A stretch of 57,667 bases of DNA, taken from the IMG/VR virus record IMGVR_UViG_3300047374_000251; one strand, 5' to 3'. The stretch is from a virus. Every line of letters begins with the position of its first letter. Position 1 is the first letter of the stretch. Below, one piece after another: positions 4,359 to 30,237 of the stretch. The translations under genes were made by a program, and so were the position numbers. The notes beneath the pieces are model-generated. The model saw only the letters and a list, made by a program, of their open reading frames with translations. It made no database searches and had not been told where the DNA came from.

Positions 4359-6455
4359 ATGGCATTGGTTGTAAACGACAGAGTCAAAGAGACTTCGACC
4401 ACTACTGGTACGGGTACTCTTAGTCTTGCAGGCGCAGTAACAGGTTTTGAAACATTTGTTGCCGGTATAGGTAATTCTAATACAACTTACTACTCAATTG
4501 TAAATGAGAATGGTGAGTTTGAAGTAGGCCTAGGTACAGTAACTGATGCAACACCAGATACTCTCGCAAGAACTACAGTTATTTCATCATCAAATAGTGA
4601 CTCCGCGGTAAATTTTTCTGCGGGAACTAAAGATGTTTTCTGTACTCTTCCTGCGTCTAAAGCAGTCATTAAAGATGCTAGCGGAAACATTGTAGCAAAT
4701 AATGGATCAGCATTAACAAATTTAAATGCAAGTAATCTAGCTTCAGGCACAGTTCCAAATGCAAGACTAGATGCTCAACTACAAGACGTTGCAGGATTAT
4801 CGACAACTTCTGGAAAAATTATTCAAGGTGATGGATCAAACTTTGGTCTTTCAGCCTACACATTACCTACATCAGACGGATCTTCTTCTCAAGTTTTAAC
4901 AACTGATGGATCAGGTGCGGTTACGTTTCAAACACCTACAGTCGGAGATATTACTTCTGTTGTAGCAGGTTCTGGTTTAACTGGGGGAGCAACTAGTGGA
5001 GCTGCAACTTTAAATGTTGGCGCAGGAACTGGTGTTACAGTTAACGCTGACGACATAGCTATTGGCCAAAGTGTGGCTACTTCAGCTAGTCCTACTTTTG
5101 CAGGATTAACAACCACTGCTGATATTAATTTTGGAGATAATGACAAAGCTATCTTTGGAGCAGGTTCAGATTTACAAATATATCATGATCCGTCTGAAGG
5201 AAGTATTGTTAGAGATGCTGGCTCTGGAAATTTAGTTCTTGCTGGAAACGATGTTCAAATTACTAATGGTGCAAGGAATGAAACACACATTGATTGCAAT
5301 AATAATGGTGCTGTCGAACTTTACCATGACAACTCTAAGAAATTAGAAACAACATCTGCTGGTGTACAAACAACAGGTACTGTTAATGTAAACGGAGCAT
5401 ATACACTTCCAACATCAGACGGATCAGCTAACCAAGTTTTAACAACTGATGGATCAGGCGCACTTACTTTTGAAACACCAACTACTGGAGATATAACTTC
5501 AGTTGTAGCAGGATCTGGTTTAACTGGAGGAGCAACTTCCGGTGCAGCTACTTTAAACGTTGGAGCTGGAAACTTAATTGATGTTCAAGCAGATCAAATA
5601 GATGTTGATCTTTCTGAACTTACGACTTCTACTTCAAATGGCGATGGTGATTTTTTTGCAGTAGTAGATGCATCAAATGCTCAGAAAAAATTAACTAAAG
5701 GTAATATTAATATTTCAGGTTTTAATAATGACTCTGGCTTTACTACAAATACAGGTACAGTAACTAGTGTTGGTATTACACCAGGAACTGGATTAGATGC
5801 TGGTTCAGCTGTTACAACTTCTGGTACTATTAGTGTTGATTTAGATTTATCAGAACTTACTGACATGACAGCTACAATGACTGGGTCAGATGAATTTATT
5901 GTTTTAGATTCAAGTGCAGAGAGAAGAAAAGCGGCTAGTGAAATAGGTTTATCTATTTTTAATAATGACGCTGGGTTTACTACAAACACTGGAGACATTA
6001 CTTCTGTTGTAGCAGGATCTGGATTAACAGGCGGTGCAACTAGTGGAGCTGCTACTTTAAATGTTGGAGCAGGCACAGGTATCGATGTTGCTGCAGATGC
6101 AATTTCAGTTGATGTATCAGACTTTATGTCAAACGGTTCTAACAACAGAGTTGTTACAGCTACAGGTGCAGATGGTATGAATGCAGAAGCTAATATGCAG
6201 TTTGATGGATCTACATTAACAGTAACTGGAGATATTGTTCCAGGAGCTAATGATAGTCATGACCTCGGTGCTTCAGACAATGTTTGGAGAAACTTATACA
6301 CTGGAGATTTACATTTATCTAATGAATCTAAATCAGAAGGTAATGCAGTTGATGGCACTAAAGGTAGCTGGACAATTCAAGAGGGTGCAGAAGATCTTTA
6401 TTTATTTAATAACAAATCTGGTAAAAAATATAAGTTTAAACTAGAGGAAGTTTAA
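4359..6455 (+). CDS. Tail fibre protein with internal repeats
   Basis: 698 aa, Gly/Ser/Thr-rich. It has three copies of GDITSVVAGSGLTGGATSGAATLNVGAG, and its C-terminal module is shared with 7418-8119. Confidence 0.8.
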   Translation: MALVVNDRVKETSTTTGTGTLSLAGAVTGFETFVAGIGNSNTTYYSIVNENGEFEVGLGTVTDATPDTLARTTVISSSNSDSAVNFSAGTKDVFCTLPASKAVIKDASGNIVANNGSALTNLNASNLASGTVPNARLDAQLQDVAGLSTTSGKIIQGDGSNFGLSAYTLPTSDGSSSQVLTTDGSGAVTFQTPTVGDITSVVAGSGLTGGATSGAATLNVGAGTGVTVNADDIAIGQSVATSASPTFAGLTTTADINFGDNDKAIFGAGSDLQIYHDPSEGSIVRDAGSGNLVLAGNDVQITNGARNETHIDCNNNGAVELYHDNSKKLETTSAGVQTTGTVNVNGAYTLPTSDGSANQVLTTDGSGALTFETPTTGDITSVVAGSGLTGGATSGAATLNVGAGNLIDVQADQIDVDLSELTTSTSNGDGDFFAVVDASNAQKKLTKGNINISGFNNDSGFTTNTGTVTSVGITPGTGLDAGSAVTTSGTISVDLDLSELTDMTATMTGSDEFIVLDSSAERRKAASEIGLSIFNNDAGFTTNTGDITSVVAGSGLTGGATSGAATLNVGAGTGIDVAADAISVDVSDFMSNGSNNRVVTATGADGMNAEANMQFDGSTLTVTGDIVPGANDSHDLGASDNVWRNLYTGDLHLSNESKSEGNAVDGTKGSWTIQEGAEDLYLFNNKSGKKYKFKLEEV

Positions 6456-7417: not shown

Positions 7418-8119
7418 ATGGCTAACGATACTTCAGCAAGTTTAAAATTAACAGTTCAAACAACCGGTGAAAATTCTGGAACTTGGGGACAGATTACAAA
7501 CACTAATTTATTGATTCTAGAGCAAGCTATTGGTGGATCTGCTGCAGTCGGAATTACTTCAGGTGCTACTTTAACTTTTGCAGACGGTGCTTTATCAAAT
7601 GGTAAAAACCAGGTTTTAAGATTAACAGGAACTATAGCAGGAAATGTTAATGTAATAATTCCAGAAGAGAGTGGTTCAGGAACAGCTCCAAAAAAAACAT
7701 ATCTTGTAGAAAATGCTACTACAGGAGCACACACTGTAACTCTTAAAACAGCTTCTGGAACAGGTCCAACTTGGGCTACTACAGACAAAGGATATAAAAT
7801 TGTGTATTCAGATGGAACTAATGTTGTAGATATCACAGCAGATTTAGGTGATATATCTTCTGGCGCTATTAATGCTACTGGACATGTTATTCCTGGTGCT
7901 AATGATACTTACGATTTAGGTACTACAACTGCTGTTTGGAGAAACTTATACACTGGGGATTTACATTTATCAAACCAAGCTAAGAATCAAGGCAACATTG
8001 TAGATGGGACCAAAGGAAATTGGACTTTACAAGAAGGAAAAGATGATATATTCATGATAAATAATATATCTGGAGAAAAATTTAAAATTAATTTATCCAA
8101 GGTAAAAGGAGATTCATAA
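7418..8119 (+). CDS. Second tail fibre/spike-like protein
   Basis: About 75 C-terminal aa are homologous to the C-terminus of 4359-6455 (VWRNLYTGDLHLSN..VDGTKG.WT.QEG). Confidence 0.65.
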   Translation: MANDTSASLKLTVQTTGENSGTWGQITNTNLLILEQAIGGSAAVGITSGATLTFADGALSNGKNQVLRLTGTIAGNVNVIIPEESGSGTAPKKTYLVENATTGAHTVTLKTASGTGPTWATTDKGYKIVYSDGTNVVDITADLGDISSGAINATGHVIPGANDTYDLGTTTAVWRNLYTGDLHLSNQAKNQGNIVDGTKGNWTLQEGKDDIFMINNISGEKFKINLSKVKGDS

Positions 8120-9387
8120 TGGGTGTTATTTCATGTGGAACAACAATGCTCGATCAAGGAGTTTTTCAAAACATAGGAGCGGTTACTTGGGATACAACAG
8201 CTAAAACATCAAATTTTACAGGTGTTTCAGGAAATGGATATTTTGTAAATACTACAAGTGGAGCAGTTACAGTAACACTTCCAAGTTCACCTTCTGCAGG
8301 TAATATCGTAGGTATTAAAGATTACGCAAATACAGCTGACACAAACAATATTACAATTGGTAGAAACGGATCTAATATTCAAGGCACAGCTGATGATTTT
8401 AAAATTAAAGCAGAAGGAGGATCTGCCGTATTACTTTATGTAGATGGAACACAAGGATGGAAAGTAATATCTGAATCTACAGCAAGTGCTATTACTAATC
8501 AAGAATTTACAGTGGCTACCGGTGGAACCATTACAACCTCTGGAGATTTTAAAATTCATACTTTTACAGGACCAGGTACTTTTTCTGTTTCATCAGTAGG
8601 TAATGCTCCTGGTGGTGGGGATAAAGTTTCTTATGCAGTTGTTGCTGGGGGTGGTGGCTCAGGAAGAGCATGTGCTGGTGGCGGTGGAGGAGCCGGAGGT
8701 TATAGAGAAGGAAAAGATTCACCCAAAGATTCATACACAGCTTCACCAATAGTTGCACCCGCTGGACTCACAGTTTCAGCTTCACCGGGTTCTTATCCAA
8801 TTACGGTAGGCGGTGGTGGTGCAGTTCCAGGTTCCGGTGCTAGTTCTGGTTCTAATGGAAGCCCTTCAACATTTTCAAGTATAACATCAGCTGGCGGAGG
8901 ATTTGGTCATGGTCCTAGTAATGGAGGTCCAGGAGGTTCCGGTGGAGGTGGCGGAGGTCAGCCTTCTAGATCAGGAGGAACAGGTAATCAACCTCCAGTT
9001 AGTCCAGCTCAAGGAACTAATGGTGGTACAGGATTTTGGACAGGCGGTTCATTTGGTGAAAAAGGTGGCGGTGGCGGTGGAGCTACAGATGCAGGTACTT
9101 CTGCAGGACCAGGACCAGGCGGTACAGCACCTGGAGGAGACGGAGCAACAAGTTCAATTGATGGATCATCAACTACAAGAGCTGGTGGCGGTGGTGGCGG
9201 TAACGCAGGAGCTACTCCAGCAGCAAGTTCAGGTGGACCAGGTGGAGGTGGCCCTGGAGGATGTTCTAGTCCAGGTACAGCTGGAACAGCTAATACTGGT
9301 GGAGGTGGAGGTGGATCTGGTAGTAACAGTTCATCTGCTGCTGCAGGTGGTAGTGGAGTAGTTATTATAAGGTACAAATTTCAATAG
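8119..9387 (+). CDS. Glycine/proline-rich tail-associated protein
   Basis: 422 aa. An ordinary N-terminal domain is followed by long G/P/S/A-rich low complexity, ending in GGSGVVIIRYKFQ. That ending is typical of phage glycine-rich domain proteins as I recall them. Confidence 0.65.
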   Translation: MGVISCGTTMLDQGVFQNIGAVTWDTTAKTSNFTGVSGNGYFVNTTSGAVTVTLPSSPSAGNIVGIKDYANTADTNNITIGRNGSNIQGTADDFKIKAEGGSAVLLYVDGTQGWKVISESTASAITNQEFTVATGGTITTSGDFKIHTFTGPGTFSVSSVGNAPGGGDKVSYAVVAGGGGSGRACAGGGGGAGGYREGKDSPKDSYTASPIVAPAGLTVSASPGSYPITVGGGGAVPGSGASSGSNGSPSTFSSITSAGGGFGHGPSNGGPGGSGGGGGGQPSRSGGTGNQPPVSPAQGTNGGTGFWTGGSFGEKGGGGGGATDAGTSAGPGPGGTAPGGDGATSSIDGSSTTRAGGGGGGNAGATPAASSGGPGGGGPGGCSSPGTAGTANTGGGGGGSGSNSSSAAAGGSGVVIIRYKFQ

Positions 9388-9396
9388 AGGTTAATT

Positions 9397-9846
9397 ATGG
9401 CACATTTTGCAAAAATAGGAGCTAACAATAAAGTCATTAGAGTATTAACGCTTGATGACAAAGATATGAAAAATGCTGATAATGTTGGGGATGAATCAGT
9501 AGGTCAACAATATTTAGAGCTACATAATAATTGGCCGGCAGAAATGTGGGTTCAAACTTCATACAATACACATTGCAATCAACATAGTAATGGTGGAACT
9601 GCATTTAGAGGAAACTATGCAGGTATAGGTTATGAATGGGATGAAGATAATCAAATCTTTTGGCCTAAAAAACCTTACGCATCTTGGATAAAACATTTAG
9701 AATCAGCTTCTTGGAAATCACCGATCGGTGATGCTCCAGCATTAACAGCCGAACAAACTTCACAAAACGAAGCAAACACCCATATGTGGTCTTACGTTTG
9801 GAATGAAGATAATACAACTTGGGATTTGACAGACTCTAAACCATAA
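9397..9846 (+). CDS. Conserved phage protein of unknown function
   Basis: MAHFAKI..V..V.., QTSYN and FRGNYAGIGYEWDEDNQIFWPKKPYASW match a pattern I recognise from many marine phage genomes. Confidence 0.55.
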   Translation: MAHFAKIGANNKVIRVLTLDDKDMKNADNVGDESVGQQYLELHNNWPAEMWVQTSYNTHCNQHSNGGTAFRGNYAGIGYEWDEDNQIFWPKKPYASWIKHLESASWKSPIGDAPALTAEQTSQNEANTHMWSYVWNEDNTTWDLTDSKP

Positions 9847-9864
9847 TTTATATATAGTGGTGGT

Positions 9865-10368
9865 ATGCAAAAGAAAGTATTAACAGAGCAAGCACTGTAT
9901 TATGGTGATGTCAAAATGCCTAAAGATTGGGACATTGACCGAGATAAATTATCCGACGACATTTTACAATCAGTAATTCAAAATAAAGATTTTTTATTTT
10001 CAAGAACTTGGGATATGTTGAATACATACATTAGTGAACATATTAATCTTGAATATAGTATCAATTTAATCAACAAAGAAACGTGGGGAGATATTTATAA
10101 ACCTGCGGAAACAACTATTCCATTACTCAATATTGATCCGGTAAATTTACGTAACTCTCCAGACTTTACATTATTATATGGTGTCAGAGTTAAAGATTGT
10201 ATGGTTAGAATACATTATGAAGATAACAGACGTAAAGGAAGAAGCTGGGACATACCACTGACTAATAATAAATTTATAATGTTTCCCTCAACCAATATGT
10301 ATTATTTAACCAATAATCAAAAAGATTCATTAAACTTTGTACAAACAATAACCTATGAATATATATAA
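9865..10368 (+). CDS. Hypothetical protein, possibly a degenerate double-stranded beta-helix relative
   Basis: The C-terminal FIMFPSTNMYY resembles the FPS..H strand of 2OG-FeII_Oxy_5 proteins but lacks the His. No HxD motif seen. Confidence 0.4.
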   Translation: MQKKVLTEQALYYGDVKMPKDWDIDRDKLSDDILQSVIQNKDFLFSRTWDMLNTYISEHINLEYSINLINKETWGDIYKPAETTIPLLNIDPVNLRNSPDFTLLYGVRVKDCMVRIHYEDNRRKGRSWDIPLTNNKFIMFPSTNMYYLTNNQKDSLNFVQTITYEYI

Positions 10369-10840
10369 AAATTTTTTATCTAAAAACGAATTTAAAGAAT
10401 TAGAAGATAGAGTCATGGGTGATAATATGCCTTGGTATTTTAATGATTCTGTAGTTTTAAAAAAAGATGATTATTTTCAATTAGTCTACGTTTTTGTTAA
10501 ACCTGGTGGAGAAATAAACTGTGAAGACTTTATAATGGATCTTTTAAAACCTTTTGTAAAAAAATTAAATATAAAAAAATTTTTTAAAGTAAAAGCAAAC
10601 CTTTTAACTAGAACTAATAAAATAATAGAACACGGTATGCACATAGATGACGACAGACACACCAGAGGAAAAACTGGAATTTTTTATTTAAACACTTGTG
10701 ACGGTTACACTAAATTAGAAGATGGCACAAAAATAAAAAGTGAAAAAAATAAATATGTAGAATTTGATTGTAATATTAAACATACAGGTTCGTCTTGCAC
10801 GAATCAAAAAAGGAGAGTTGTAATTAACTTAAACTATTAA
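10355..10840 (+). CDS. 2OG-Fe(II) oxygenase superfamily protein
   Basis: Motifs HIDDD, IKHTGSS and RRVVINLNY. Paralogue of 12094-12582. Confidence 0.6.
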   Translation: MNIYKNFLSKNEFKELEDRVMGDNMPWYFNDSVVLKKDDYFQLVYVFVKPGGEINCEDFIMDLLKPFVKKLNIKKFFKVKANLLTRTNKIIEHGMHIDDDRHTRGKTGIFYLNTCDGYTKLEDGTKIKSEKNKYVEFDCNIKHTGSSCTNQKRRVVINLNY

Positions 10841-11469
10841 TGAACATATCTAATTATTACTGGTATTTTACGGGTGTGCTTACACCAAAGTTTTGTGATG
10901 ATGTAATAGCTTATGCTAATCAACAAAAAGAAGTAATGGCTAGAACAGGTAGTTATGGAGATAGAAAATTAAATAAACAAGAAGTATTAGATTTAAAAAG
11001 AAAAAGAAACTCTGATCTAGTGTGGCTTAGTGATACTTGGATATATAAAGAATTACATCCATATGTACATAAAGCAAATGAAATGGCTGGTTGGAATTTT
11101 GATTGGGAAAGAAGTGAGTCTTGTCAGTTTACAAAATATAAACACAACCAATATTATGATTGGCATTGTGACAGTTGGGACAAACCTTATGAAAAAGCAG
11201 GACCTGATAATGGTAAAATTCGAAAACTATCTATGACTTGTCAATTAACAGATGGTTCAGAATATGAAGGTGGTGAATTAGAATTTGATTTTAGAAACTA
11301 TGACCCACATATGCGAGATGAATCGAAGCATAGAATACAATGCAAAGAGATATTACCAAAAGGTTCTATTATTGTATTTCCTTCTTTTGTCTGGCATAGA
11401 GTTAAACCAGTAACATCAGGTACAAGATACAGTCTTGTAGTATGGCATTTAGGGAGGCCTTTCAAATAA
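10840..11469 (+). CDS. Prolyl 4-hydroxylase-like 2OG-Fe(II) oxygenase
   Basis: Motifs WHCDS (HxD), FVWHRVKPV (distal His) and GTRYSLVVW (2OG-binding Arg), with P4H-type spacing. Confidence 0.75.
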   Translation: MNISNYYWYFTGVLTPKFCDDVIAYANQQKEVMARTGSYGDRKLNKQEVLDLKRKRNSDLVWLSDTWIYKELHPYVHKANEMAGWNFDWERSESCQFTKYKHNQYYDWHCDSWDKPYEKAGPDNGKIRKLSMTCQLTDGSEYEGGELEFDFRNYDPHMRDESKHRIQCKEILPKGSIIVFPSFVWHRVKPVTSGTRYSLVVWHLGRPFK

Positions 11470-12101
11470 TGTATATAAGTAATTATTTTAACACAACTAT
11501 TTGGTCAGAACAAAAACCAGAATTTTTAAAGTCATTAAACAAAGCATCTAATAAATATATTAAAGAAGCAAGGGACAGAAACAAAACACACATAAAAAAA
11601 CATGGTGATTTTGGATTATCACATCACTCAACACCATTAACACATGATAATGATTTCTTAGATTTTAGAAATTACATTGGTCAAAAGTCTTGGGAATATT
11701 TAGATCATCAAGGTTATGATATGCAACAATACACAACTATGTTTAGTGAGCTGTGGGTACAAGAGTTTGCTAAAAAAGGTGGTGGTCATCACTCTGCACA
11801 TATACATTGGAATCAACACGTATCAGGATTTTATTTTTTAAAGTGCAGCGATAAAACATCATACCCAATTTTTCACGAACCAAGAACTGGGGCAAGAGCT
11901 ACAAAATTAAAAATGAAACCAGATCAAAAAGGTGTATGGCCAGGTGAAGAACTTATAAACTTTAAACCTATACCAGGTACATTAATTATATTTCCAGGAT
12001 TTTTAGAACACGAATATGCAGTCGATTACGGCATAGAACCATTTAGATTTATACATTGGAATATACAAGCGATACCAAAAGAAATGGCTAAAAATGTTTA
12101 A
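11469..12101 (+). CDS. 2OG-Fe(II) oxygenase (2OG-FeII_Oxy_5-like)
   Basis: Motifs HSAHIHWNQHVSGFYFL, GTLIIFPGFLEHEY and FRFIHWN. The start was moved to the ATG at 11469 (TAATG junction with the upstream stop). Confidence 0.65.
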   Translation: MYISNYFNTTIWSEQKPEFLKSLNKASNKYIKEARDRNKTHIKKHGDFGLSHHSTPLTHDNDFLDFRNYIGQKSWEYLDHQGYDMQQYTTMFSELWVQEFAKKGGGHHSAHIHWNQHVSGFYFLKCSDKTSYPIFHEPRTGARATKLKMKPDQKGVWPGEELINFKPIPGTLIIFPGFLEHEYAVDYGIEPFRFIHWNIQAIPKEMAKNV

Positions 12102-12582
12102 GATAAAGAAAAATACTATAAGTAAAAAAAAATTAAACAATTTTATTAACAGAATATCAAATAGTTATTTTCCTTGGTATTTACAAGATGAAATAAATGA
12201 GTTTGATAAATCTGGTTATGGATATTTTACACATTCTTTATTTTTAAATAATAAAATAAATAGTTCTTTTTATGAATTAATTATGCCAGATATAATCAAA
12301 AGTCTTAATATTAAATCTTTACTTAGAGCAAGATTAAATTTGTATCCTAAAACATCTAAAACTATTAAACACGCTTATCATGTTGATTATGAATTTAAAC
12401 ATACATCTGCTGTTTATTTTATAAATACTAATAATGGGTTTTTGTTTTTTAAAAATCCGTCAAAAAAAGTTAAACCTGAAGCTAACAAATGTGTAATTTT
12501 TGATGGTGCACATTTTCACTCTAGTTCATCTTGTACTGACAAAACTAATAGAATTACTTTAAATATAAACTATGAGCTTTAA
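12094..12582 (+). CDS. 2OG-Fe(II) oxygenase superfamily protein (paralogue of 10355-10840)
   Basis: Motifs HVDYE, HFHSSSS and NRITLNINY, with the same architecture and length as 10355-10840. Confidence 0.6.
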   Translation: MFKIKKNTISKKKLNNFINRISNSYFPWYLQDEINEFDKSGYGYFTHSLFLNNKINSSFYELIMPDIIKSLNIKSLLRARLNLYPKTSKTIKHAYHVDYEFKHTSAVYFINTNNGFLFFKNPSKKVKPEANKCVIFDGAHFHSSSSCTDKTNRITLNINYEL

Positions 12583-13195
12583 AAAAAATAAATATACAGT
12601 TATTCGTAAAGCAATATCAAAAGACCTGGCGGCTTTTATTGCAAACTATTTTAGTATGCAAAAACAAGTATACGATACTTGTAGAGCACAAAGATATATT
12701 TCTCCATTCGAAAATATTATAGGTCAATATGAAGACGCTAATGAACAAATACCAAATACCTATAGTCAGTATTCTAATATTGCTATGGAAACTTTATTGT
12801 TAAAATGCCAACCTAAAATGGAAGAAGTAACAGGATTAAAGTTATACCCTGCATACACTTATGCAAGAATATATAAAAAAGGTGATGAACTTAAAAGACA
12901 CAAAGATAGGTTTAGTTGTGAAATATCTACTACTATGAATCTTGGTGGTGATCCTTGGCCAATATATTTAGAGCCATCTGGTAAGGAAGGTAAAAAAGGA
13001 ATTAAAGTAGACTTAAAACAGGGAGACATGTTAGTTTATTCTGGCTGTGAACTAGAACATTGGAGAAATAAATTTAAAGGTAAGGAATGTGTTCAAGTTT
13101 TTTTGCATTACAACAACCGTAAAACACCTGGGTCTAAAGAAAATATGTTCGATAAAAGACCACATTTAGGACTTCCATCTTGGTTTAAAAGGTAG
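12572..13195 (+). CDS. 2OG-Fe(II) oxygenase
   Basis: Motifs LKRHKDRF (HxD) and CELEHWRNKF (distal His). 207 aa. Confidence 0.65.
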   Translation: MSFKKNKYTVIRKAISKDLAAFIANYFSMQKQVYDTCRAQRYISPFENIIGQYEDANEQIPNTYSQYSNIAMETLLLKCQPKMEEVTGLKLYPAYTYARIYKKGDELKRHKDRFSCEISTTMNLGGDPWPIYLEPSGKEGKKGIKVDLKQGDMLVYSGCELEHWRNKFKGKECVQVFLHYNNRKTPGSKENMFDKRPHLGLPSWFKR

Positions 13196-13203
13196 TATAT
13201 TAT

Positions 13204-13248
13204 AAAAGAGGCAGTGGACACCACCACATACCACCCACTGTCTCTTTT
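13204..13248. terminator. Long hairpin closing the oxygenase block (AAAAGAGGCAGTGG / CCACTGTCTCTTTT)
   Basis: 14-bp stem (one G-U pair) and a 17-nt C/A-rich loop. An A-run forms the 5' arm and a T-run forms the 3' arm, so it could act in both directions. Confidence 0.5.
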
Positions 13249-13265
13249 ATAATATTTGAATAACT

Positions 13266-15191
13266 ATGTTACAGAAACTTAATTTTAAACCTGGTTTTGA
13301 TAAAATGGTAACTGAATCTGGTGCAGAATCACAATGGATAGACGGTGATTTTGTAAGATTTAGATATGGACTACCTGAAAAAATAGGGGGTTGGTCACAA
13401 CTTACTAATTCTAATAACACATTACCAGGTGTAGCAAGAGCACAACACGCGTTTGCTGCTATAAATGGTGAAAAATATGTAGCCATAGGAACGTCACAAG
13501 GTTTGTTTTTATATTATGCAGGTGAGTTTTTTGATATTTCTCCTTTAGATGATGGTATTACAGGAGCTACCTTTAATGCAACATCCGGTTCTGCTACAGT
13601 TACAGTAAATAAAACATCACATGGTTTATTAGCTGGAAGATACATAACTTTTTCATCAGTTACTGTTCCAACAGGATCCGGTTACTCACCAACTGATTTC
13701 ACAGGAAATACATTTGAAATACAAACTACAAATTTAGGGTCAAATAGTTTTGAAATTATTATGCCGTCTAACTCAGCTGGAAGTACGTCTGGAACTGGTT
13801 CAGCACAAATTGATCCATATGAAATAGTAGGTCCAACGTTTCAAACTGCTGGATTAGGTTGGGGAACATCTACTTGGGGATCAGGCACATGGGGAACTGC
13901 TAGTACAACTAGTTCTGTAATATTGGATCCAGGTTTATGGTCATTAGATAATTTTGGTCAAATACTTGTCGCAACCATTCACAACGGTAAAACATTTACA
14001 TGGAACGCAGGAGTAACAAATCCTAGAACAAACAGAGCAACTATTATGTCTGGTGCTCCTACTAAATCAAGATTAACTCAAGTATCAGATAGGGATAGAC
14101 ATGTGTTTCATTTTGGAACAGAAACAACAATCGGTAGTTCAACAACTCAAGATCCAATGTTTATTAGATTTTCTGATCAAGAAAATTTTAATGTATACCA
14201 ACCAACAGCAATTAACACTGCTGGAACATTTAGATTAGATAAGGGTAATGAGATTATTGGGGCTGTATCGGGTAAAGATTATACTTTAGTGTTAACTGAT
14301 ACATCAGCGTATGCAATTCAATATGTTGGACCACCGTTTACATTTAGTGTTAGACAAGTAGGTACAAATTGTGGATTGATTGGACAAAACGCATTAAGTT
14401 ATTCTAATGGTATTGTTTTTTGGATGTCAGGTGAAGGTGGATTTTTTATGTTTGATGGTACTGTAAAATCTATTCCTTGTGAAGTTGAAGATTTTGTATT
14501 TAGCACAACAGGAAATAATTTAGGAATTAATCAAACTTCAAGTCAATTAGTTTATGCAGAACACAATACTTTATATAATGAAATTAATTGGTTTTATGCT
14601 AAATTTGGATCTCAACAAATTGACAGATGTGTTACCTATAATTACGCAGAAAATGTTTGGACTACTTCTTCATTAGCTAGAACTAGTTATATAGATCAAG
14701 GACTTTTTGATTTGCCCTATGCAACAGAATACAATAAAACCTCTCTACCTAATTTTCCAATTCAAGGTATAACAGCAACATATGGTGCATCTACTTACTA
14801 TGAACATGAAACAGGGACCGATCAAGTAAATAGTTCCGGCACAACATCAATTGATGCGTTTATACAATCTGGAGATTTTGATATTACTAACTCTAATAAC
14901 ATTGCTAATTTACAAGGAGATGGTGAATTTACAATGTCTGTAAAAAGGTTTATACCTGATTTTCAAGTATTAACAGGTAATTCTAAAATTACTTTGTTAC
15001 TAAATAATTATCCAAACAATACAGCTACAAGCTCACCACTTGGCCCCTTTACAGTTACTTCCTCTACTGATAAAATAGACACTCGTGCAAGAGCAAGATT
15101 AGTAGCACTTAAAATAGAAAACGATGCAGTTGGAGAAACTTGGCGTTATGGTACTTTTAGATTAGATGCAAAACCAGATGGACGTAGATAA
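13266..15191 (+). CDS. Large tail protein (tail tubular B / nozzle-like)
   Basis: 641-aa ORF in the tail block. The N-terminus (FVRFRYGLPEKIGGWSQL) resembles podovirus nozzle proteins from memory only. Confidence 0.45.
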   Translation: MLQKLNFKPGFDKMVTESGAESQWIDGDFVRFRYGLPEKIGGWSQLTNSNNTLPGVARAQHAFAAINGEKYVAIGTSQGLFLYYAGEFFDISPLDDGITGATFNATSGSATVTVNKTSHGLLAGRYITFSSVTVPTGSGYSPTDFTGNTFEIQTTNLGSNSFEIIMPSNSAGSTSGTGSAQIDPYEIVGPTFQTAGLGWGTSTWGSGTWGTASTTSSVILDPGLWSLDNFGQILVATIHNGKTFTWNAGVTNPRTNRATIMSGAPTKSRLTQVSDRDRHVFHFGTETTIGSSTTQDPMFIRFSDQENFNVYQPTAINTAGTFRLDKGNEIIGAVSGKDYTLVLTDTSAYAIQYVGPPFTFSVRQVGTNCGLIGQNALSYSNGIVFWMSGEGGFFMFDGTVKSIPCEVEDFVFSTTGNNLGINQTSSQLVYAEHNTLYNEINWFYAKFGSQQIDRCVTYNYAENVWTTSSLARTSYIDQGLFDLPYATEYNKTSLPNFPIQGITATYGASTYYEHETGTDQVNSSGTTSIDAFIQSGDFDITNSNNIANLQGDGEFTMSVKRFIPDFQVLTGNSKITLLLNNYPNNTATSSPLGPFTVTSSTDKIDTRARARLVALKIENDAVGETWRYGTFRLDAKPDGRR

Positions 15192-15355
15192 TGGCTAAAG
15201 TATCCGCATATATACCTGAACCTAAACAAGAGTATGATGTAGAAAATCAAAGACAAATTTTAGAATCTCTTGCAACAGTAAAAGATCAACTTAATTTTTC
15301 TTTTCAAAATGACTTGAAAGAAGAAATAGATGCATATAATTATTTTTTAACATGA
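15191..15355 (+). CDS. Small hypothetical protein (54 aa, not in the ORF track)
   Basis: The ATG overlaps the upstream TAA (TAATG) and its stop overlaps the next ATG (ATGA), so it fits a translationally coupled chain. Confidence 0.4.
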   Translation: MAKVSAYIPEPKQEYDVENQRQILESLATVKDQLNFSFQNDLKEEIDAYNYFLT

Positions 15356-15702
15356 CAATACAATATAAAAATCAAGGTTTTAAACAAGCTGATACAGCTA
15401 AAGCAACGGTGCTTACTTGTCCTACTGATGGGGCAATTATAGTTAAAAGTGTTTATTGTGCAAACAACGATGCATCATCCGCTATTTTAGTGAATATGAA
15501 TTTTGTTGACTCATCTGATTCAAGCACTGAATATGAATTTTTTAGAGATGATATAGCGGCTAAATCACAAGTGAATGCTTCACCTCAAGGCTTGAATTTA
15601 GAAGCAGGTGATGCTATAACGGTACAAGCAGCTACAGGCAGTAATAAAATACAGGGCCTGATAAGTTATGCTTTAATAGACAGGTCACAACAAAATGGAT
15701 GA
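15352..15702 (+). CDS. Hypothetical protein
   Basis: 116-aa ORF, coupled to its neighbours. Confidence 0.5.
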   Translation: MTIQYKNQGFKQADTAKATVLTCPTDGAIIVKSVYCANNDASSAILVNMNFVDSSDSSTEYEFFRDDIAAKSQVNASPQGLNLEAGDAITVQAATGSNKIQGLISYALIDRSQQNG

Positions 15703-15919
15703 TATTTTAAAAATAGATTGTACTACAACAGTAGTGTTGAGAAATACTAGAACAAATAAAATATATAAAGACGAAGCAGAGAAAGAAGCTGATATAGCTG
15801 ATCCTAATACTGAAACAGTTGCAGAGCATATTGCTCAAGATTTAACAGTAGAGGTATCTCCGAAAGGATTGAATGTTTTACAGAAAGTTATGAATGAAAA
15901 TAAGAAATCAAACACCTAA
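15695..15919 (+). CDS. Hypothetical protein
   Basis: 74-aa acidic ORF. Confidence 0.45.
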   Translation: MDDILKIDCTTTVVLRNTRTNKIYKDEAEKEADIADPNTETVAEHIAQDLTVEVSPKGLNVLQKVMNENKKSNT

Positions 15920-16841
15920 AGGTGGAACTGAATTACAATTAAGTTTTTTAAATAAATACGTAGATCAAAGTTTATTAGACAAAGTTCAAATTTGTACTTC
16001 AATACCAGGTAAAGTTCCATTAGATCCCAACAAAGTAAATATACTTTGGCAAAAAAATTCTTACGATCAACCAAATCTATATCCTTGGTTTAAAAATAAA
16101 GCTAATCATCATAAGTACGATTGGTATGTATTTAATTCTCATTGGAATCATGAAAAATTTAGAATGATGTTTGGTTTACCTACTGAAAAATGTATTGTTA
16201 TAAAAAATGGTGTAGATAAAATAGAACAATCAAAACCTTATGAAAAAGGACAACCTATAAAAATCATACATCAAAACACTCCTTGGAGAGGTTTATCTGT
16301 ATTACTTGGTGCAATGCAGTTAGTTAAAAACCCATTAATTACTTTAGATGTATACTCTTCTTGTGAAGTTTATGGCAAAGATTTTATGAATAAAAATGAT
16401 AAAGATTACAAAGCTCTTTACGATCAAGCAGAGTCTTTACCTAATGTAAATTATATTGGTTATAAATCTAACGAGTATATTAGAGAAAATATAAAAAATT
16501 ATAACATGTATGTTTACCCCAGTATATTTGAAGAAACTTCTTGTATATCTTTGCTTGAAGCAATGTCTGCCGGATTGTATTGCGTATTAACTAACTACGG
16601 AGCTCTTTTTGAAACAGGTGCAGAATTTCCAATGTATATTCCTTATGATAGTAACTACAAAGCTTTAGCTGAAAAATTTGCTTATGGAATAGATGCTGCG
16701 GCTGCAACACTTCATGAACAAGTAATACAAGACCATTTAACCACACAATCTTGCTATACACAGTTTTATTATTCTTGGAATAAACAAGCTGTTTCATGGA
16801 CTAATTTTTTACAGGGAGCAATCAATGCCAAAGCCAAATGA
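15894..16841 (+). CDS. Glycosyltransferase, GT-B group 1 (GT4-like)
   Basis: YVYPSIFEETSCISLLEAMSAGLYCVLTNYGALFE matches the E-x7-E region of group-1 glycosyltransferases. Confidence 0.7.
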   Translation: MKIRNQTPKGGTELQLSFLNKYVDQSLLDKVQICTSIPGKVPLDPNKVNILWQKNSYDQPNLYPWFKNKANHHKYDWYVFNSHWNHEKFRMMFGLPTEKCIVIKNGVDKIEQSKPYEKGQPIKIIHQNTPWRGLSVLLGAMQLVKNPLITLDVYSSCEVYGKDFMNKNDKDYKALYDQAESLPNVNYIGYKSNEYIRENIKNYNMYVYPSIFEETSCISLLEAMSAGLYCVLTNYGALFETGAEFPMYIPYDSNYKALAEKFAYGIDAAAATLHEQVIQDHLTTQSCYTQFYYSWNKQAVSWTNFLQGAINAKAK

Positions 16842-17757
16842 ACCTATATGGTTTAACCAGGACAAAACAGTAACTCCAAATGGAGATACTTACCAAACAA
16901 TTAAAACTAACAGAATAGAAAATAACGTAACCGAAATAAATATAGGAGAACAATCACCATATAAAATAATGGTGTGCACTCCTTGTCATAGTGACGTTAG
17001 CATGCATTACGTACAAGCTGTATTAAAATTTCAACAAGCATGTTGGGCTAAAAAAATACAATGTAGCTTTACATTGTTAAAATCATCTTTGGTTACTCAA
17101 GGTAGAAATCTATGTGTTGCAGAAATGTTAAATCATCAAGATAATTATACTCATTTATTGTTTATTGATTCTGATATTGATTTTAATGCTGAAACTATTT
17201 TTAAGATGTTAGATTTTGACAAAGATATAATTAGTGTTCCTTATCCTATGAAAATATTGAGTTGGGATAAAATGTGGAGAAGACTTAATTTAAAAGAAAA
17301 TGCAGTCACTGATGCTGATGATTTAGCTAAAGCAGGTTTTACTTTTCCAGTCAAAGTAGAGGACCCCAATTCAGTAATTGTGGACCGAGGACTTATGGAA
17401 TTAACCCATGCTCCTACTGGGTGTATGTTAATTAAAAGAGAAGTTCTTGAAAAGATGATTAAAGAATATCCTCATTTAGAAATATTCCAACCTACTAATA
17501 TCAATGGTAAAGAAGAGAAAAAAGAAAATATGTATAATCTATTTGATACTTTACACGACCCAGTTACTAAAAGGTACTTCGGTGAAGACTTTGGATTTTG
17601 TCAACGATGGGCAGATATAGGGGGTAAGGTATATGCCTATATAAATGATTACATAACTCATGTAGGAGAATACTCTTATTGTGGTCGTTTTAGAGATGAT
17701 TTAGAACAAGCAACTAAGCCCCTCAAAGCAGTTGACGAGTCTAAAAAAATCAAATAA
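16825..17757 (+). CDS. Glycosyltransferase, GT-A (family 2-like)
   Basis: IMVCTPCHSDV.. N-terminal Rossmann-like start and a LLFIDSDIDF (DxD) motif. Confidence 0.55.
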   Translation: MPKPNEPIWFNQDKTVTPNGDTYQTIKTNRIENNVTEINIGEQSPYKIMVCTPCHSDVSMHYVQAVLKFQQACWAKKIQCSFTLLKSSLVTQGRNLCVAEMLNHQDNYTHLLFIDSDIDFNAETIFKMLDFDKDIISVPYPMKILSWDKMWRRLNLKENAVTDADDLAKAGFTFPVKVEDPNSVIVDRGLMELTHAPTGCMLIKREVLEKMIKEYPHLEIFQPTNINGKEEKKENMYNLFDTLHDPVTKRYFGEDFGFCQRWADIGGKVYAYINDYITHVGEYSYCGRFRDDLEQATKPLKAVDESKKIK

Positions 17758-17813: not shown

Positions 17814-19568
17814 ATGGCGATATCTAGATCTTTAATGAACAGACAATTACGAGCAGATGGTGGCATTATGCAAGTTGCCCCTAGAGAAAAATTTGGCTTA
17901 GGAAGTAAACTCAAAAAGTTTGTTAGAAAAATTATACCCAATGAAATAGCAGATGTTGCAACAAAAGCAGCTCCTTTCGTTGCACCCTTTAACCCATTAC
18001 TTGCAGCAGGTATGGCAGGCATTGGTAGCTTTGATAAAACAGGACGTATTGGAGACTCTTTAAAAAGTGGAGCTTTAACTTATGGACTCGGTCAAGGTGC
18101 TAGATATTTAGGCGGAGCAGATTTTCAAGGACTACAGAATCCTTTTAGTAAAGGCTCATTTAGCATGCCAACAGGTGAAGGTGGTATAAAGAATTTATTT
18201 AAAAAAGATGTTCAACCTATTCAAGCTATAAATGAAGGACAGAGCACCTTTGCTCAAGATGTTACTGCAGATCTTCTTCCCGGCGATACAGTAAGCTCAG
18301 TTGATTTAATAAGTGATTCAGGATCAACCTTTTCAAATTTTGTTGATTATGGAAAAGATCTTTTAAAAAAAGGAGCTAAAGCAGCTTTTACTAACCCAGA
18401 CGGTTCTATTGACAAAGCAGCGGTAATTGGAGCAGCAACTGCTGCAGCCTCTTATGCGGAAGCTTTAATGTTAGCTAAACAGGCTGGAGTAGACTTAACA
18501 GAAGAAGAATACGATCAAGCACAAAGAGACGAGAAACAAGCAGAGTATGGAGAGTATTTACAAAACTTCTTTGGTGGTAAAAAAGACGGTGGCAGAATAG
18601 GTTATGCAGACGGACCTCGAACCACTAGAGTAGGTAATCTAGAAATAGTAGTTATGCCAGGAAGTTCTCAAGAGAAAGCCGTTGTAGATGGTCTTATGAA
18701 TGACATAGATGGTATTGTAGATGAAGATACTAAAATGGATTTTTACAGAACACTTATACCAGAATTGATTTATTCTGGAGAAATAGAGTCTCAAGAAGGA
18801 ATGAAATTGTTACAAGAATTAGGTATAAACATGAAAGCGGACGGCGGAAGAATAGGTTATGCAAGAGGATCTGAGCCAGAAGAAGCAGAAATAGGTATCA
18901 TGTCAATTGACGTTGAAGCAGGTGATGACGAAGATGAAGAAGATATGATGATGGCAGGCGGTGGTATTACTTTTACTTCTGCAGAAAAGTCATACTTGTT
19001 TAGAAGATTGGGTGGTGCTGGTGGTCCTGATAGATCATTCACAATGCCACAATTGTATGGTATTTTAAAAAATCCAAATAGTCCAGCTAATATAGATGAT
19101 GCTAAAGTATTAAAACAAATAGCCATCATGGGTCTAGAAGGACGAAAAGACGGCGGAAGAATAGGTTACAAAGATGGATCAAAAGGTGCTAACAGAGTAT
19201 CAGAATTATTAATTACAAGAGCTGGTATACTAGCACAAGATCCTGACGCAGATGTATCTGACATTGACGGAGAGATATTTCAATTAACAGGTAAAACATT
19301 TAGATCAGTGGGTGGTATAAGTGATATACCAACAGGTAAGATTAGAAAAAATAATGCTGGTGTAGTTGAAAGAGACTACAGAGATGAAGGTGGTTTTGTA
19401 CCAGTTGGCATTAAAGAACGAGCCGATGATGTACCTGCTATGTTATCTAAAAACGAATTTGTAATGACTGCTGATGCTGTACGTGGTATAGGTAATGGCA
19501 GCGTTGAAGAGGGATCTAAGAAATTATATAATACAATGAAAAAAGCAGAACAAGTAGGTAAAGCATAA
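17814..19568 (+). CDS. Internal virion / ejection-type protein with repeated DGGRIGY motif
   Basis: 584 aa. K(K/A)DGGRIGY(A/K)xG occurs three times. C-terminal DVPAMLSKNEFVMTADAVRGIG resembles podovirus internal-protein tails. It is the first of five large genes after the tail genes. Confidence 0.55.
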   Translation: MAISRSLMNRQLRADGGIMQVAPREKFGLGSKLKKFVRKIIPNEIADVATKAAPFVAPFNPLLAAGMAGIGSFDKTGRIGDSLKSGALTYGLGQGARYLGGADFQGLQNPFSKGSFSMPTGEGGIKNLFKKDVQPIQAINEGQSTFAQDVTADLLPGDTVSSVDLISDSGSTFSNFVDYGKDLLKKGAKAAFTNPDGSIDKAAVIGAATAAASYAEALMLAKQAGVDLTEEEYDQAQRDEKQAEYGEYLQNFFGGKKDGGRIGYADGPRTTRVGNLEIVVMPGSSQEKAVVDGLMNDIDGIVDEDTKMDFYRTLIPELIYSGEIESQEGMKLLQELGINMKADGGRIGYARGSEPEEAEIGIMSIDVEAGDDEDEEDMMMAGGGITFTSAEKSYLFRRLGGAGGPDRSFTMPQLYGILKNPNSPANIDDAKVLKQIAIMGLEGRKDGGRIGYKDGSKGANRVSELLITRAGILAQDPDADVSDIDGEIFQLTGKTFRSVGGISDIPTGKIRKNNAGVVERDYRDEGGFVPVGIKERADDVPAMLSKNEFVMTADAVRGIGNGSVEEGSKKLYNTMKKAEQVGKA

Positions 19569-27577: not shown

Positions 27578-27783
27578 CGACAGATACATCCATACAAATC
27601 TCCACTACCATCTTTCATAACATAAGCATTGACAGGATAATCATGATATGTTGCTAAATGAAATCTAAGAATATCACATAAATCAAAACAATCTAATTCA
27701 TCTAATAATTCTACACCTTCAATCATTTTTTTTGTAACTTCTACAAGATGATATAAACCATCGTTTAATAATATTAAATCCAT
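27574..27783 (-). CDS. Hypothetical protein
   Basis: 69-aa ORF coupled to the SNF2 gene. Its stop codon overlaps the stop of the convergent plus-strand gene. Confidence 0.5.
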   Translation of the reverse strand: MDLILLNDGLYHLVEVTKKMIEGVELLDELDCFDLCDILRFHLATYHDYPVNAYVMKDGSGDLYGCICR

Positions 27784-29204: not shown

Positions 29205-29218
29205 AATATTTCTTCTTT

Positions 29219-29260
29219 CTATTGACAGTGATAACATAACCTTATAATAGGTGTCAATAG
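29219..29260. promoter_or_regulatory. Overlapping divergent promoters with mirrored -35 boxes (CTATTGACA ... TGTCAATAG)
   Basis: Plus strand: TTGACA at 29222-29227 and TATAAT at 29243-29248 (15-nt spacer). Minus strand: TTGACA is the reverse complement of 29252-29257. The 9-bp inverted repeat arms are separated by 24 nt. Confidence 0.45.
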
Positions 29261-29267
29261 GAAAGTT

Positions 29268-29618
29268 ATGAACACAGTTTATATTATACAAGAATTGCCA
29301 GGAACTAAAATAGGGACCCCTAAATTTAATATCATGGGAGCACAAAAGTTTGGCACATTAAAAACTTTATTACCAGAACATTCACAAATTATATTATCCC
29401 CTGGTCCATTAATTTTTAAATTAAGAAAGTTATTAGATAAATATACAGAAAACGATTACTTACTACTTACCGGAGATCCTGCAATCATAGGTGTTGCATG
29501 TTCAATTGTGGCAGATAAAACAGGTGGAAAATTTAATTTATTAAAATGGGATAGACAAGAAAAAACTTATTACCCAATAGAAATAAATTTATATGAACAA
29601 GGAAAGATTGAAGAATAA
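29268..29618 (+). CDS. Hypothetical protein
   Basis: 116-aa ORF, the first gene of the rightward early block. Confidence 0.5.
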   Translation: MNTVYIIQELPGTKIGTPKFNIMGAQKFGTLKTLLPEHSQIILSPGPLIFKLRKLLDKYTENDYLLLTGDPAIIGVACSIVADKTGGKFNLLKWDRQEKTYYPIEINLYEQGKIEE

Positions 29619-29684: not shown

Positions 29685-30233
29685 ATGAGTATAAACTTAG
29701 AAGAAGACAAAGTCGATTCGTTAGCAAACACGAATGACATGAAAGAATTATCTGAACAGGTTATTAAATTAAGAACCTTGGAAGATAAGTTCGCTGCAAA
29801 AGAAGAAGAATTAAAAAAACTAAAAAATGATATGGACGTTTTATCTGGTGAGGTTATACCTACGATGATGACAGAAATGAATATATCAAAATTTAGTTTA
29901 TCAGATGGGGCTGGCGTAGAAGTCAAACCCGTCTATGGTGCTTCAATTCCTAAAGCAAAACAGGAAGAAGCATTTGACTGGCTTCGTAAAAATGGCTTAG
30001 GGGATCTTATTAAAAATGAGATTACCGTTTCCTTTGGTCGTAACGAAGATAACAAGGCGGCAGATTATGCTGTCCTTGCGCAAGGTCAAGGGTATCAACC
30101 CACCCAGAAGTTAAAGGTTGAGCCCATGACACTTAAAGCATTGGTTCGTGAGCGTATCGAAAAGGGTGATGATATGCCCACGGATCTATTTAACGTGTTC
30201 GCAGGAAACAGAACCAAAATAACAAGGAAATAG
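29685..30233 (+). CDS. Hypothetical replication/recombination-module protein with an N-terminal coiled coil
   Basis: 182-aa ORF paired with 30238-31020. Confidence 0.5.
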   Translation: MSINLEEDKVDSLANTNDMKELSEQVIKLRTLEDKFAAKEEELKKLKNDMDVLSGEVIPTMMTEMNISKFSLSDGAGVEVKPVYGASIPKAKQEEAFDWLRKNGLGDLIKNEITVSFGRNEDNKAADYAVLAQGQGYQPTQKLKVEPMTLKALVRERIEKGDDMPTDLFNVFAGNRTKITRK

Positions 30234-30237
30234 AAAC

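Follow-up and report, generated by a model that had tools for sequence, protein, structure and literature searches.

Fiber-associated oxygenases and a glycosyltransferase pair of an HTVC023P-type pelagiphage probably belong to two separately inherited late-gene modules

We analyzed IMG/VR virus record IMGVR_UViG_3300047374_000251, a DNA of 57,667 nucleotides (the window), and in particular its interval 7418–17757, in which a gene for a Gly-rich fiber protein is followed by an array of oxygenase genes, a structural gene, and two glycosyltransferase (GT) genes. A preliminary description had treated the fiber, one prolyl 4-hydroxylase (P4H)-like enzyme, and the GTs as a single module for hydroxylation and glycosylation of a virion protein. 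Our comparison of related loci suggests that the interval is instead made up of two separately inherited late-gene modules and does not encode one pathway, a reading to which we assign a probability of about 0.6. Module A (8119–13195) would hold the fiber and oxygenase genes, and module B (13266–17757) would be a conserved virion block that carries the GT pair. We base this reading on the gene counts in the oxygenase slot, the invariance of the GT pair, the patterns of co-divergence, and the occurrence of the fiber-oxygenase cassette without the GTs in pelagimyophage records.

The genes at the center of the comparison, with lengths in amino acids (aa), are as follows:
7418–8119, plus strand: 233-aa tail protein (phrog_31104, phrog_892 tail fiber), the conserved upstream flank of the variable fiber cassette
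8119–9387, plus strand: 422-aa predicted receptor-binding fiber protein with an N-terminal anchor and a C-terminal Gly-rich domain (phrog_2295 and tail-fiber phrogs)
9397–9846, plus strand: p149 (phrog_7759), which by synteny always stands directly after the Gly-rich fiber gene
10840–11469, plus strand: P4H209, a 209-aa 2-oxoglutarate (2OG)-Fe(II) oxygenase of the P4H/prolyl hydroxylase domain (PHD) type (PF13640; invariant triad; AlphaFold2 model)
12572–13195, plus strand: ox207, a member of an orphan HxD...H family (phrog_2954, phrog_3531)
13266–15191, plus strand: 641-aa core virion structural protein (phrog_3287, E 4e-81), first gene of the conserved block carrying the GT pair
15894–16841, plus strand: 315-aa GT-B glycosyltransferase, GT4-like (PF00534; phrog_2170)
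16825–17757, plus strand: 310-aa GT-A-fold glycosyltransferase of an unnamed family (phrog_1574; D115-S-D117 invariant; AlphaFold2 model)

Four of these open reading frames (ORFs), those of 422, 209, 315, and 310 aa, had been named before, and their exact coordinates and plus-strand orientation were reproduced.

Inheritance of the fiber-oxygenase cassette and the glycosyltransferase pair

More than 100 loci were compared, i.e., 80 IMG/VR loci gathered through the 641-aa structural protein (which has 397 IMG/VR relatives), 25 pelagimyophage loci, two ENA contigs, and 61 GTDB loci. These loci share ancestry, several are near-duplicates, and the statistics ignore kinship; most of the contigs are fragments, and the absence of a gene at a locus says nothing about the rest of that genome.

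We defined the oxygenase slot as the interval between the tail protein (7418–8119) and the 641-aa protein, and this interval was complete in 32 loci. Oxygenase genes occupy the slot in 30 of the 32, in 2 to 9 copies, and are present in every interval with a Gly-rich fiber (24/24) and in most of those with another fiber (6/8). Genes of the P4H family were found in the slot of 23/24 and 6/8 of these intervals, respectively. Among the loci that extend far enough, GT-B is present in 31/31 and GT-A in 20/20, including loci whose fibers are not Gly-rich, and the pair is kept in five loci with no oxygenase gene in the 2–6 kb upstream of the 641-aa protein (L071, L025, L036, L038, and L041). Co-occurrence in relatives, which had been proposed as a check on the single module, thus holds for the fiber and the P4H family but not for the GT pair, which is independent of both the oxygenases and the Gly-rich fiber.

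Co-divergence was expressed as the Spearman rho of divergence from the window's own proteins. Values were high within the cassette, with 0.87 for P4H209 and ox207, 0.75 for P4H209 and p149, and 0.83 for ox207 and p149; any of these three against the abutting 641-aa protein gave 0.24–0.32 (not significant), and P4H209 against the upstream tail protein gave 0.0. GT-B and GT-A co-diverge with each other (0.83) and with the 641-aa protein (0.67–0.79). The values for either GT against P4H209 or p149, and for GT-B against ox207, ranged from -0.5 to 0.39 (not significant). By both counts and rho, the GT pair is inherited apart from the oxygenases, and the grouping of fiber, P4H, and GTs in one module was not borne out.

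The cassette recurs in T4-like pelagimyophages (e.g., Mosig EXVC030M), in which, at most of the loci long enough to judge, a Gly-rich fiber gene precedes the P4H and ox207 pair and further oxygenase genes, in either orientation. The 516-aa protein of Mosig contains the same Gly-rich domain as the fiber protein of the window. No homologs of GT-B or GT-A were found in the pelagimyophage records.

Judged by its sequence, the window is essentially a whole (near-complete) genome of an HTVC023P-type pelagiphage, a podovirus of SAR11, because parts of the 10-kb interval are ~80% identical in DNA to the nearest records (023Pt_psg01, Pelagibacter phage HTVC023P, and HTVC027P), the gene order agrees with these three genomes, the exact 422-aa fiber protein occurs in 24 public contigs (the longest 57.7 kb), and a Pelagibacteraceae single-cell genome contains a near-identical fiber-oxygenase cassette on a contig of 59.5 kb.

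In the HTVC027P transcriptome, the fiber gene, three oxygenase-cluster genes, the 641-aa homolog (gp75), and both GT homologs all fall into the "Late" class (PMC12753301 Table S3), and their counterparts in the window are all on the plus strand, in agreement with the common late direction noticed earlier. In the same data set, the GT transcripts reach levels close to that of the structural protein, several-fold above those of the oxygenases. Expression at different times had been named as an outcome that would speak against a joint pathway; the shared late timing does not refute such a pathway, yet it does not discriminate among the rival explanations. A promoter and terminator scan of 4–20 kb did not reveal operon limits, with promoter-like counts at the level of shuffled sequence and terminator-like sites modestly above it.

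The Gly-rich fiber and its oxygenase array

The following features were recorded within the fiber gene:
8176–8472, plus strand: anchor domain (aa 20–118) of the T4 gp10/tailspike N-terminal type, assigned from PDB sequence matches
8599–9378, plus strand: Gly_rich_2 domain (aa 161–420; PF21722, E 8e-13) with GGGGxGG-type motifs and a conserved C-terminus, GGSGVVIIRYKFQ
8980–9027, plus strand: Pro-containing loop GTGNQPPVSPAQGTNG (family consensus GxGNTPPVSPPQGN)
9009–9377, minus strand: antisense ORF with a poly-Pro translation, wholly within 8119–9387

The 422-aa protein is predicted to be a modular receptor-binding fiber protein, because its anchor domain matches tailspikes (7rfv/7rej, E 8e-10) and T4 gp10 (2fl8/5hx2, E 2e-3) and its C-terminal part matches Gly_rich_2 (49 bits against a cutoff of 24). 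The protein contains eight GGGG runs, and 61 of the 97 Gly columns of the domain are conserved at 75% or more in 23 homologs. Both peptides quoted in the preliminary description, GGPGGSGGGGGGQPSRSGGTGNQPPVSP and GPGPGGTAPGGDG, are present. The accompanying phrase "Gly/Pro/Ser-rich C-terminal half" is accurate for Gly (36%) and Ser (14.5%), to which Ala (11%) can be added, but not for Pro, which makes up 8% of that half (from aa 161) and forms no collagen repeat; over the entire protein, Gly accounts for 27.5% and Pro for 5.7%. About 8 of the 24 prolines fall in alignment columns in which 60% or more of the 23 homologs also have Pro, and of the five Lys residues in the C-terminal half, only K420 is at a conserved position (78%).

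A scan for collagen Gly-X-Y periodicity, (G..){4,}, gave poly-Gly tracts only, and together with the Pro census it rules out a collagen- or extensin-like substrate in this protein. The sole truly Pro-rich ORF nearby, 9009–9377, is an antisense reading of Gly codons and was rejected as a gene. The segment 8001–10000 has a GC content of 0.41 and a GC skew of 0.21, against a background GC of ~0.30–0.39 in other 2-kb windows, and this high GC is a footprint of GGN codons and not of foreign origin. Within the Gly-rich domain, the loop GTGNQPPVSPAQGTNG is the only plausible conserved Pro target, with P296 and Q298 each conserved in 96% and P292/P293 in 65–70% of the 23 homologs.

In the glycine-rich adhesins Pam3 gp24, S16 gp38, and the ALK ectodomain, Gly residues form a lattice of extended strands, and variable distal tips bind the receptor (PMC9608196). 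The fiber protein resembles Pam3 gp24 and S16 gp38 in its predicted distal receptor-binding domain, its Gly content (~35–40%), and its GGGGxGG-type motifs; it differs in its N-terminal anchor, which is gp10/tailspike-like and not an alpha-helical bundle. Sequence comparison with the Pam3, S16, and ALK chains of the PDB gave no match. In Pam3, the fiber chaperone is encoded by the small gene directly after gp24 (PMC9608196). From its position, and by analogy with Pam3 gp25 (PMC9608196), p149 may be a fiber chaperone; it matched no known chaperone in PHROG and PDB searches.

HTVC023P carries four tandem paralogs of the Gly-rich fiber gene (L001 8952–14648), other relatives (L087, L088, L118, and L125 among them) carry two to four, and the window carries one. 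The tandem paralogs suggest multi-adhesin (branched) fibers and a variable host range. The 233-aa tail protein upstream is 41–86% identical across related loci. Over their 79-aa C-termini, this protein and a 698-aa fiber protein (4359–6455) are 59% identical, and this part contains …VWRNLYTGDLHLSN…GTKG.WT.QEG…; the 698-aa protein also has a 24-residue repeat, SVVAGSGLTGGATSGAATLNVGAG, in three copies.

The oxygenase-like genes in tandem at 10355–13195 number five. In addition to P4H209 and ox207, this region and its upstream flank comprise:
9865–10368, plus strand: p167, with no Pfam, PHROG, or NCBIfam match
10355–10840, plus strand: ox161, small 2OG-oxygenase-like protein (2OG-FeII_Oxy_3 sub-threshold, E 1e-3; phrog_274; conserved H96...H143), paralog of ox162
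11442–12101, plus strand: ox219, 2OG-FeII_Oxy_5-type oxygenase (PF13759, E 2e-11; phrog_81; TIGR02466 sub-threshold)
12094–12582, plus strand: ox162, small 2OG-oxygenase-like protein (conserved H96...H142), paralog of ox161

A jackhmmer search with p167 recovered its own family only, with no conserved H, D, E, R, or K column. The database label "endonuclease V" on ox161 and ox162 is a mislabel of 2OG-oxygenase-like paralogs.

The gene at 10840 had been presented alone as prolyl-4-hydroxylase-like; profile, triad, and fold agree with that designation, whereas the gene is one of the five. P4H209 matches Pfam 2OG-FeII_Oxy_3 with E 3.9e-16 (60.2 bits against a cutoff of 27), and H109-x-D111...H186...R196, i.e., the iron triad and the 2OG-binding Arg, is invariant in 37 sequences. 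The AlphaFold2 model is of moderate confidence (predicted local distance difference test [pLDDT] 74). Its top 50 Foldseek matches in the PDB include PPHD (4iw3/4j25), PBCV-1 vCPH (5c5t), DdPhyA (6t8m), PHD2, Cr-P4H, and PiuC, with template-modeling (TM) scores of 0.5–0.65; for the prolyl hydroxylases named, E ranges from 1e-8 to 2e-6 and TM from 0.55 to 0.65 (PhyA 6t8m, E 3.5e-7). By sequence, the nearest PDB entry is PiuC (E 2e-4), and NCBIfam YbiX-family matches were sub-threshold; a literature search on PiuC function gave nothing. As modeled, P4H209 is a double-stranded beta-helix enzyme that is closest by fold to prolyl hydroxylases. It shares this fold, the HxD...H triad, and the 2OG-binding Arg with PPHD (which acts on EF-Tu), vCPH, PhyA (which acts on Skp1), PHD2, and PiuC/YbiX, but it differs from prolyl hydroxylases in its low sequence identity (13–20%), in having no peptide-substrate-binding domain, and in being paired or fused with the ox207 family.

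The ox207 family has eight invariant residues (R99, H110, D112, R113, H163, R165, H179, and D194). The "ferrochelatase" label given to 12572–13195 is unsupported for this HxD...H family and looks like a propagated misannotation: a ferrochelatase signature was absent from the window protein by Pfam and NCBIfam, and Pfam returned nothing significant for 21 family members. The best PDB profile match of ox207 is a Naegleria Tet-like dioxygenase (E 0.14, not significant), and sequence searches of the PDB with ox207, p149, and both GTs gave no usable matches. In cyanophage ACG-2014f (L117:9449–10537), the ox207 family forms the N-terminal half of a 362-aa protein and is fused to a P4H209-type domain. 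An hhalign comparison of the two family profiles found no similarity, and the ox207 hidden Markov model weakly touches the P4H-type half of the fusion (domain E 1.9e-5). The P4H209 and ox207 families adjoin in nearly all pelagiphage loci of both morphotypes, and because of this near-constant adjacency and the ACG-2014f fusion, we take the two to be functional partners.

Both families also occur elsewhere. On a marine T4-like phage contig, the pair stands between uvsY and uvsW (uvsY-P4H-ox207-uvsW), and cyanomyovirus homologs of the oxygenases lie beside uvsW/uvsY, nrdAB, tRNAs, and psbA. Bacterial ox207 homologs have no fiber gene nearby. In alphaproteobacterial metagenome-assembled genomes (MAGs), they lie beside a flavodoxin-like reductase and pirin; on an Oleiphilaceae chromosome, beside a catalase-peroxidase-type peroxidase (KatG); and on a Pseudomonadales chromosome, divergent from a PF13640 oxygenase. 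In an Acidobacteriota MAG (L146:6099–8591), the homolog directly follows NTP_transf_5 and PqqD-domain genes, the latter encoding a recognition element of ribosomally synthesized and post-translationally modified peptides (RiPPs), in a RiPP-like cluster. This PqqD context hints that the ox207 family can tailor peptides.

We propose that module A is a swappable host-recognition cassette that comprises the Gly-rich fiber, p149, and the oxygenases. The gp10-type anchor would fix the fiber to the tail, p149 may serve as its chaperone, and the glycine richness would be structural, as in polyglycine-type adhesins of the Pam3 gp24/S16 gp38 kind. The oxygenases would be accessory enzymes in a hypervariable slot behind the fiber gene that are exchanged together with the fiber, and their core would be the P4H/PHD-fold enzyme and ox207. 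From the fold, we infer that they most likely hydroxylate proteins or peptides. The same pair is also found in places that lack a Gly-rich fiber, and for this reason a substrate peculiar to that fiber is improbable.

The glycosyltransferase pair and the core virion block

Between the structural gene and the GT genes, one further group was recorded:
15191–15919, plus strand: three small conserved ORFs of 54, 116, and 74 aa, whose order is kept in related loci

The 116- and 74-aa ORFs had no family match. The assignments of a GT-B fold at 15894 and a GT-A fold at 16825 in the preliminary description were confirmed. GT-B matches Glycos_transf_1 (E 2.8e-13; 50.2 bits against a cutoff of 26.4) and carries an EX7E motif, ETSCISLLE, at aa 214–222; in NCBIfam, GT4 models for exopolysaccharide, lipopolysaccharide, and lipoteichoic acid synthesis were matched below threshold. 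GT-A had no Pfam family above threshold and is assigned from its fold (AlphaFold2 model, pLDDT 70) and its DxD motif. Foldseek matches of this model in the PDB are the GT domain of LH3 (E 2e-7, TM 0.38), STIV A197 (TMt 0.59), and mimivirus R699, and among predicted viral structures they are phage GT-A proteins (E 1e-19, TM 0.62–0.77). Because LH3 and R699 glycosylate hydroxylysine, the likeness to them is suggestive; with a TM of 0.38 in a model, however, it would be generic to the GT-A fold.

We propose that module B is a conserved virion block in which the GT pair is required throughout the lineage, irrespective of fiber and oxygenase content. Since the pair is kept regardless of that content, it would act on something common to all members, and we infer that its target is either a core virion protein, glycosylated directly on Ser/Thr as mycobacteriophage proteins are, or a glycan of the host envelope.

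Known systems offer partial parallels. In the work of Freeman et al. (2023), mycobacteriophage virions are reportedly glycosylated by phage-encoded GTs on capsid and tail-tube proteins, with no hydroxylase involved. The parallel is that phage GT genes are taken there to indicate virion glycosylation and that the GT pair of the window lies among virion genes and is late; pelagiphage virions, however, are not reported to be glycosylated. Virion glycosylation of mycobacteriophages by phage GTs is also mentioned in PMC11256854. Among viruses, a single system is established in which a virion fiber protein is first hydroxylated by a 2OG-dependent enzyme and then glycosylated, that of mimivirus L230 (lysyl hydroxylase/GT) and R699, with human LH3 as its counterpart, and the neighbors of the GT-A model include the LH3 GT domain and R699. 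The substrate in that case is, however, collagen Gly-X-Y with Lys, whereas the window has no such repeat, no lysyl-hydroxylase-type domain was identified in it, and the TM is 0.38; in addition, hydroxylase and GT are here not fused and are inherited independently, and enzymes and would-be substrate are not consistently found together. As for the Skp1-type system (PhyA and Gnt1), PhyA is among the fold neighbors of P4H209, and nothing links either GT to the Gnt1 family.

Homologs of GT-B were found in phiM12, phiM7, phiM19, phiN3, Cr30, DLP_6, vB_OspM_OC, and RHph_I1_18, and counts made by genus, not accession by accession, suggest that a GT-A homolog accompanies GT-B in every such phage. GT-A and GT-B may therefore act together even in distantly related phages. 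The two homologs are, however, neither neighbors nor located among structural genes in phiM12, DLP_6, and Cr30.

Three further observations concern other parts of the window. The GT pair is followed by a gene for a 584-aa protein (17814–19568) without family match, in which K/R-x-DGGRIGY occurs three times (aa 258, 343, and 446) at a spacing of ~85–100 residues. At 29685–31020, two adjoining proteins match the Pfam families Pam3 gp33-like (DUF7307) and Pam3 gp34-like, and these family matches tie the pelagiphage to a freshwater cyanomyophage. A SNF2-type helicase gene (27774–29345, minus strand) is among the few minus-strand genes of this mostly plus-strand genome.

Alternative explanations and significance

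The alternative that survives best holds that the oxygenases are host-directed auxiliary enzymes, which would modify host proteins (e.g., translation factors, as Pseudomonas PPHD modifies EF-Tu) or small molecules and thereby, in the late phase of infection, adjust the physiology of the host or its iron or 2OG status. PPHD, the prolyl hydroxylase of EF-Tu, is the best structural neighbor of P4H209, the families closest to P4H209 in sequence are PiuC and YbiX, the bacterial ox207 homologs lie in redox or stress contexts, host iron-uptake genes are up during HTVC027P infection, and the cyanophage literature treats such genes as auxiliary metabolic genes (PMC3037559; PMC9599517). However, late timing combined with a low transcript level would be unusual for host takeover, and the oxygenases are conserved beside fiber genes in two lineages. 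This explanation overlaps with the two-module reading, which commits to no particular substrate; we regard it as possible, if short of likely.

A second alternative is fiber maturation by the oxygenases alone, in which P4H209 and ox207, perhaps with other members of the array, would hydroxylate the receptor-binding protein or its chaperone and thus modulate how it folds, how stable it is, or how it binds the receptor; the GTs would be unrelated. Several observations count against our preferred reading here by favoring a functional link between oxygenases and fiber. The ox207 family is present in the slot of 21/24 intervals with a Gly-rich fiber versus 1/8 without one. Loci with tail-collar-type fibers are mostly devoid of ox207 and have their oxygenase genes on the opposite strand. 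The fiber-oxygenase cassette is common to a podovirus and a T4-like myovirus at only ~40% identity; since these are two unrelated virion types, the linkage is old and may be functional and not positional. In pelagimyophage loci compared with the Mosig reference, the oxygenase pair is about as divergent as the fiber and more divergent than the neighboring heme oxygenase gene. The Gly-rich domain, finally, has a near-invariant Pro-containing loop.

Fiber maturation also gains from the co-inheritance and co-divergence of the cassette, its recurrence in pelagimyophages with either gene orientation, the late expression, and the RiPP-like setting of a bacterial ox207 homolog, which hints at peptide substrates. 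It is weakened by the position that the same pair has in marine T4-like phages, between uvsY and uvsW, by ox207 genes in bacterial chromosomes without a fiber, and by the spread of oxygenase copy numbers (2 to 9) even in close relatives. Moreover, no oxygenase is described alongside the Gly-rich adhesins of Pam3 and S16, nor are these described as requiring a hydroxylase (PMC9608196), and the co-variation of oxygenases and fiber can be accounted for by physical linkage in a recombining island, which suffices without a functional tie. We therefore consider fiber maturation doubtful. The narrower proposal that P4H209 and ox207 hydroxylate the adhesin itself, e.g., at the conserved NTPPVSPPQG loop, seems slightly more doubtful still; later glycosylation by the core GT pair would then be possible and not required.

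DNA hypermodification appears improbable. One or more oxygenases, e.g., ox207 as a TET/JBP-like 5-methylpyrimidine or thymine dioxygenase, would hydroxylate phage DNA bases, which the GTs would glycosylate as in base J or in phage TET and GT systems. Phage systems in which a TET-like dioxygenase and a GT glycosylate hydroxymethylated bases are known and provide a precedent (bioRxiv 10.1101/2023.12.21.572611), the location of P4H and ox207 between uvsY and uvsW would fit, and in phiM12 and DLP_6 the GT-B homologs lie beside nrdC and RNase H and not beside structural genes. The Naegleria Tet-like match of ox207 points the same way, but its E of 0.14 is not significant, and no oxygenase of the array has a Tet_JBP Pfam match. 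In addition, a scan of the replication-module ORFs, which covered part of the small ones, yielded neither a C5 methyltransferase nor a TET/JBP enzyme nor a hydroxymethylase of the thymidylate-synthase type, and no C5 methyltransferase or hydroxymethylase is annotated in relatives. The structural neighbors of P4H209 are protein hydroxylases, GT-B resembles GT4 enzymes of polysaccharides and glycolipids, and the GTs are late genes within the virion operon. The only methyltransferase found in the window is a Methyltransf_24-type S-adenosylmethionine-dependent enzyme of the early/middle region (40589–41251), which is not of the C5 DNA type; by tblastn, it had no match in the part of DLP_6 where a methyltransferase gene stands beside GT genes.

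The full pathway, in which P4H209 would hydroxylate fiber prolines and GT-B and GT-A would O-glycosylate the hydroxyprolines to decorate the virion fiber, is very improbable and the weakest of all: it can draw on the P4H/PHD fold with its intact triad, the late class of all genes in HTVC027P, the conserved PPVSPxQ loop, and GT-A neighbors that include the hydroxylysine-glycosylating LH3 GT domain and mimivirus R699 (PMC9546862), but the GT pair neither co-varies nor co-occurs with the oxygenases or the Gly-rich fiber, the pelagimyophages have the fiber-oxygenase cassette with no GT homolog found in their records, Pro is scarce in the domain (8%), mostly unconserved, and free of collagen- or extensin-type repeats, the GT-A matches are generic to the fold at their low TM (0.38), and P4H-family genes occur with other fiber types and away from fibers.

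The gene content itself is already known. A catalogue of the 2OG-Fe(II) oxygenase arrays of marine phages existed by 2010 (PMC3037559), and for the same lineage Wittmers et al. (2022; PMC9599517) described three GTs and eight 2OG oxygenase families that are non-orthologous and lie together with "ferrochelatases"; they treated these genes as auxiliary. Beyond that study, our analysis adds the two-module inheritance, the reclassification of the "ferrochelatase" and its fusion, the cassette held in common with pelagimyophages, and the bacterial homologs.

The two-module reading narrows the question. The oxygenases would form a unit with the fiber cassette and not with the GTs, and the core of the array would be a P4H-type enzyme and a partner wrongly called ferrochelatase, a pair that is also met as a fusion protein and in bacteria. 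A direct proteomic test is within reach because HTVC023P and HTVC027P are in culture. If the fiber is not hydroxylated, the oxygenases would be accessory enzymes with targets in the host or in nucleic acids. If it is, the adhesin would be, to our knowledge, the first enzymatically hydroxylated receptor-binding protein of a phage, and its modification would represent a new means by which phages adjust host recognition and give a function to the long-unexplained 2OG oxygenase arrays of marine phages.

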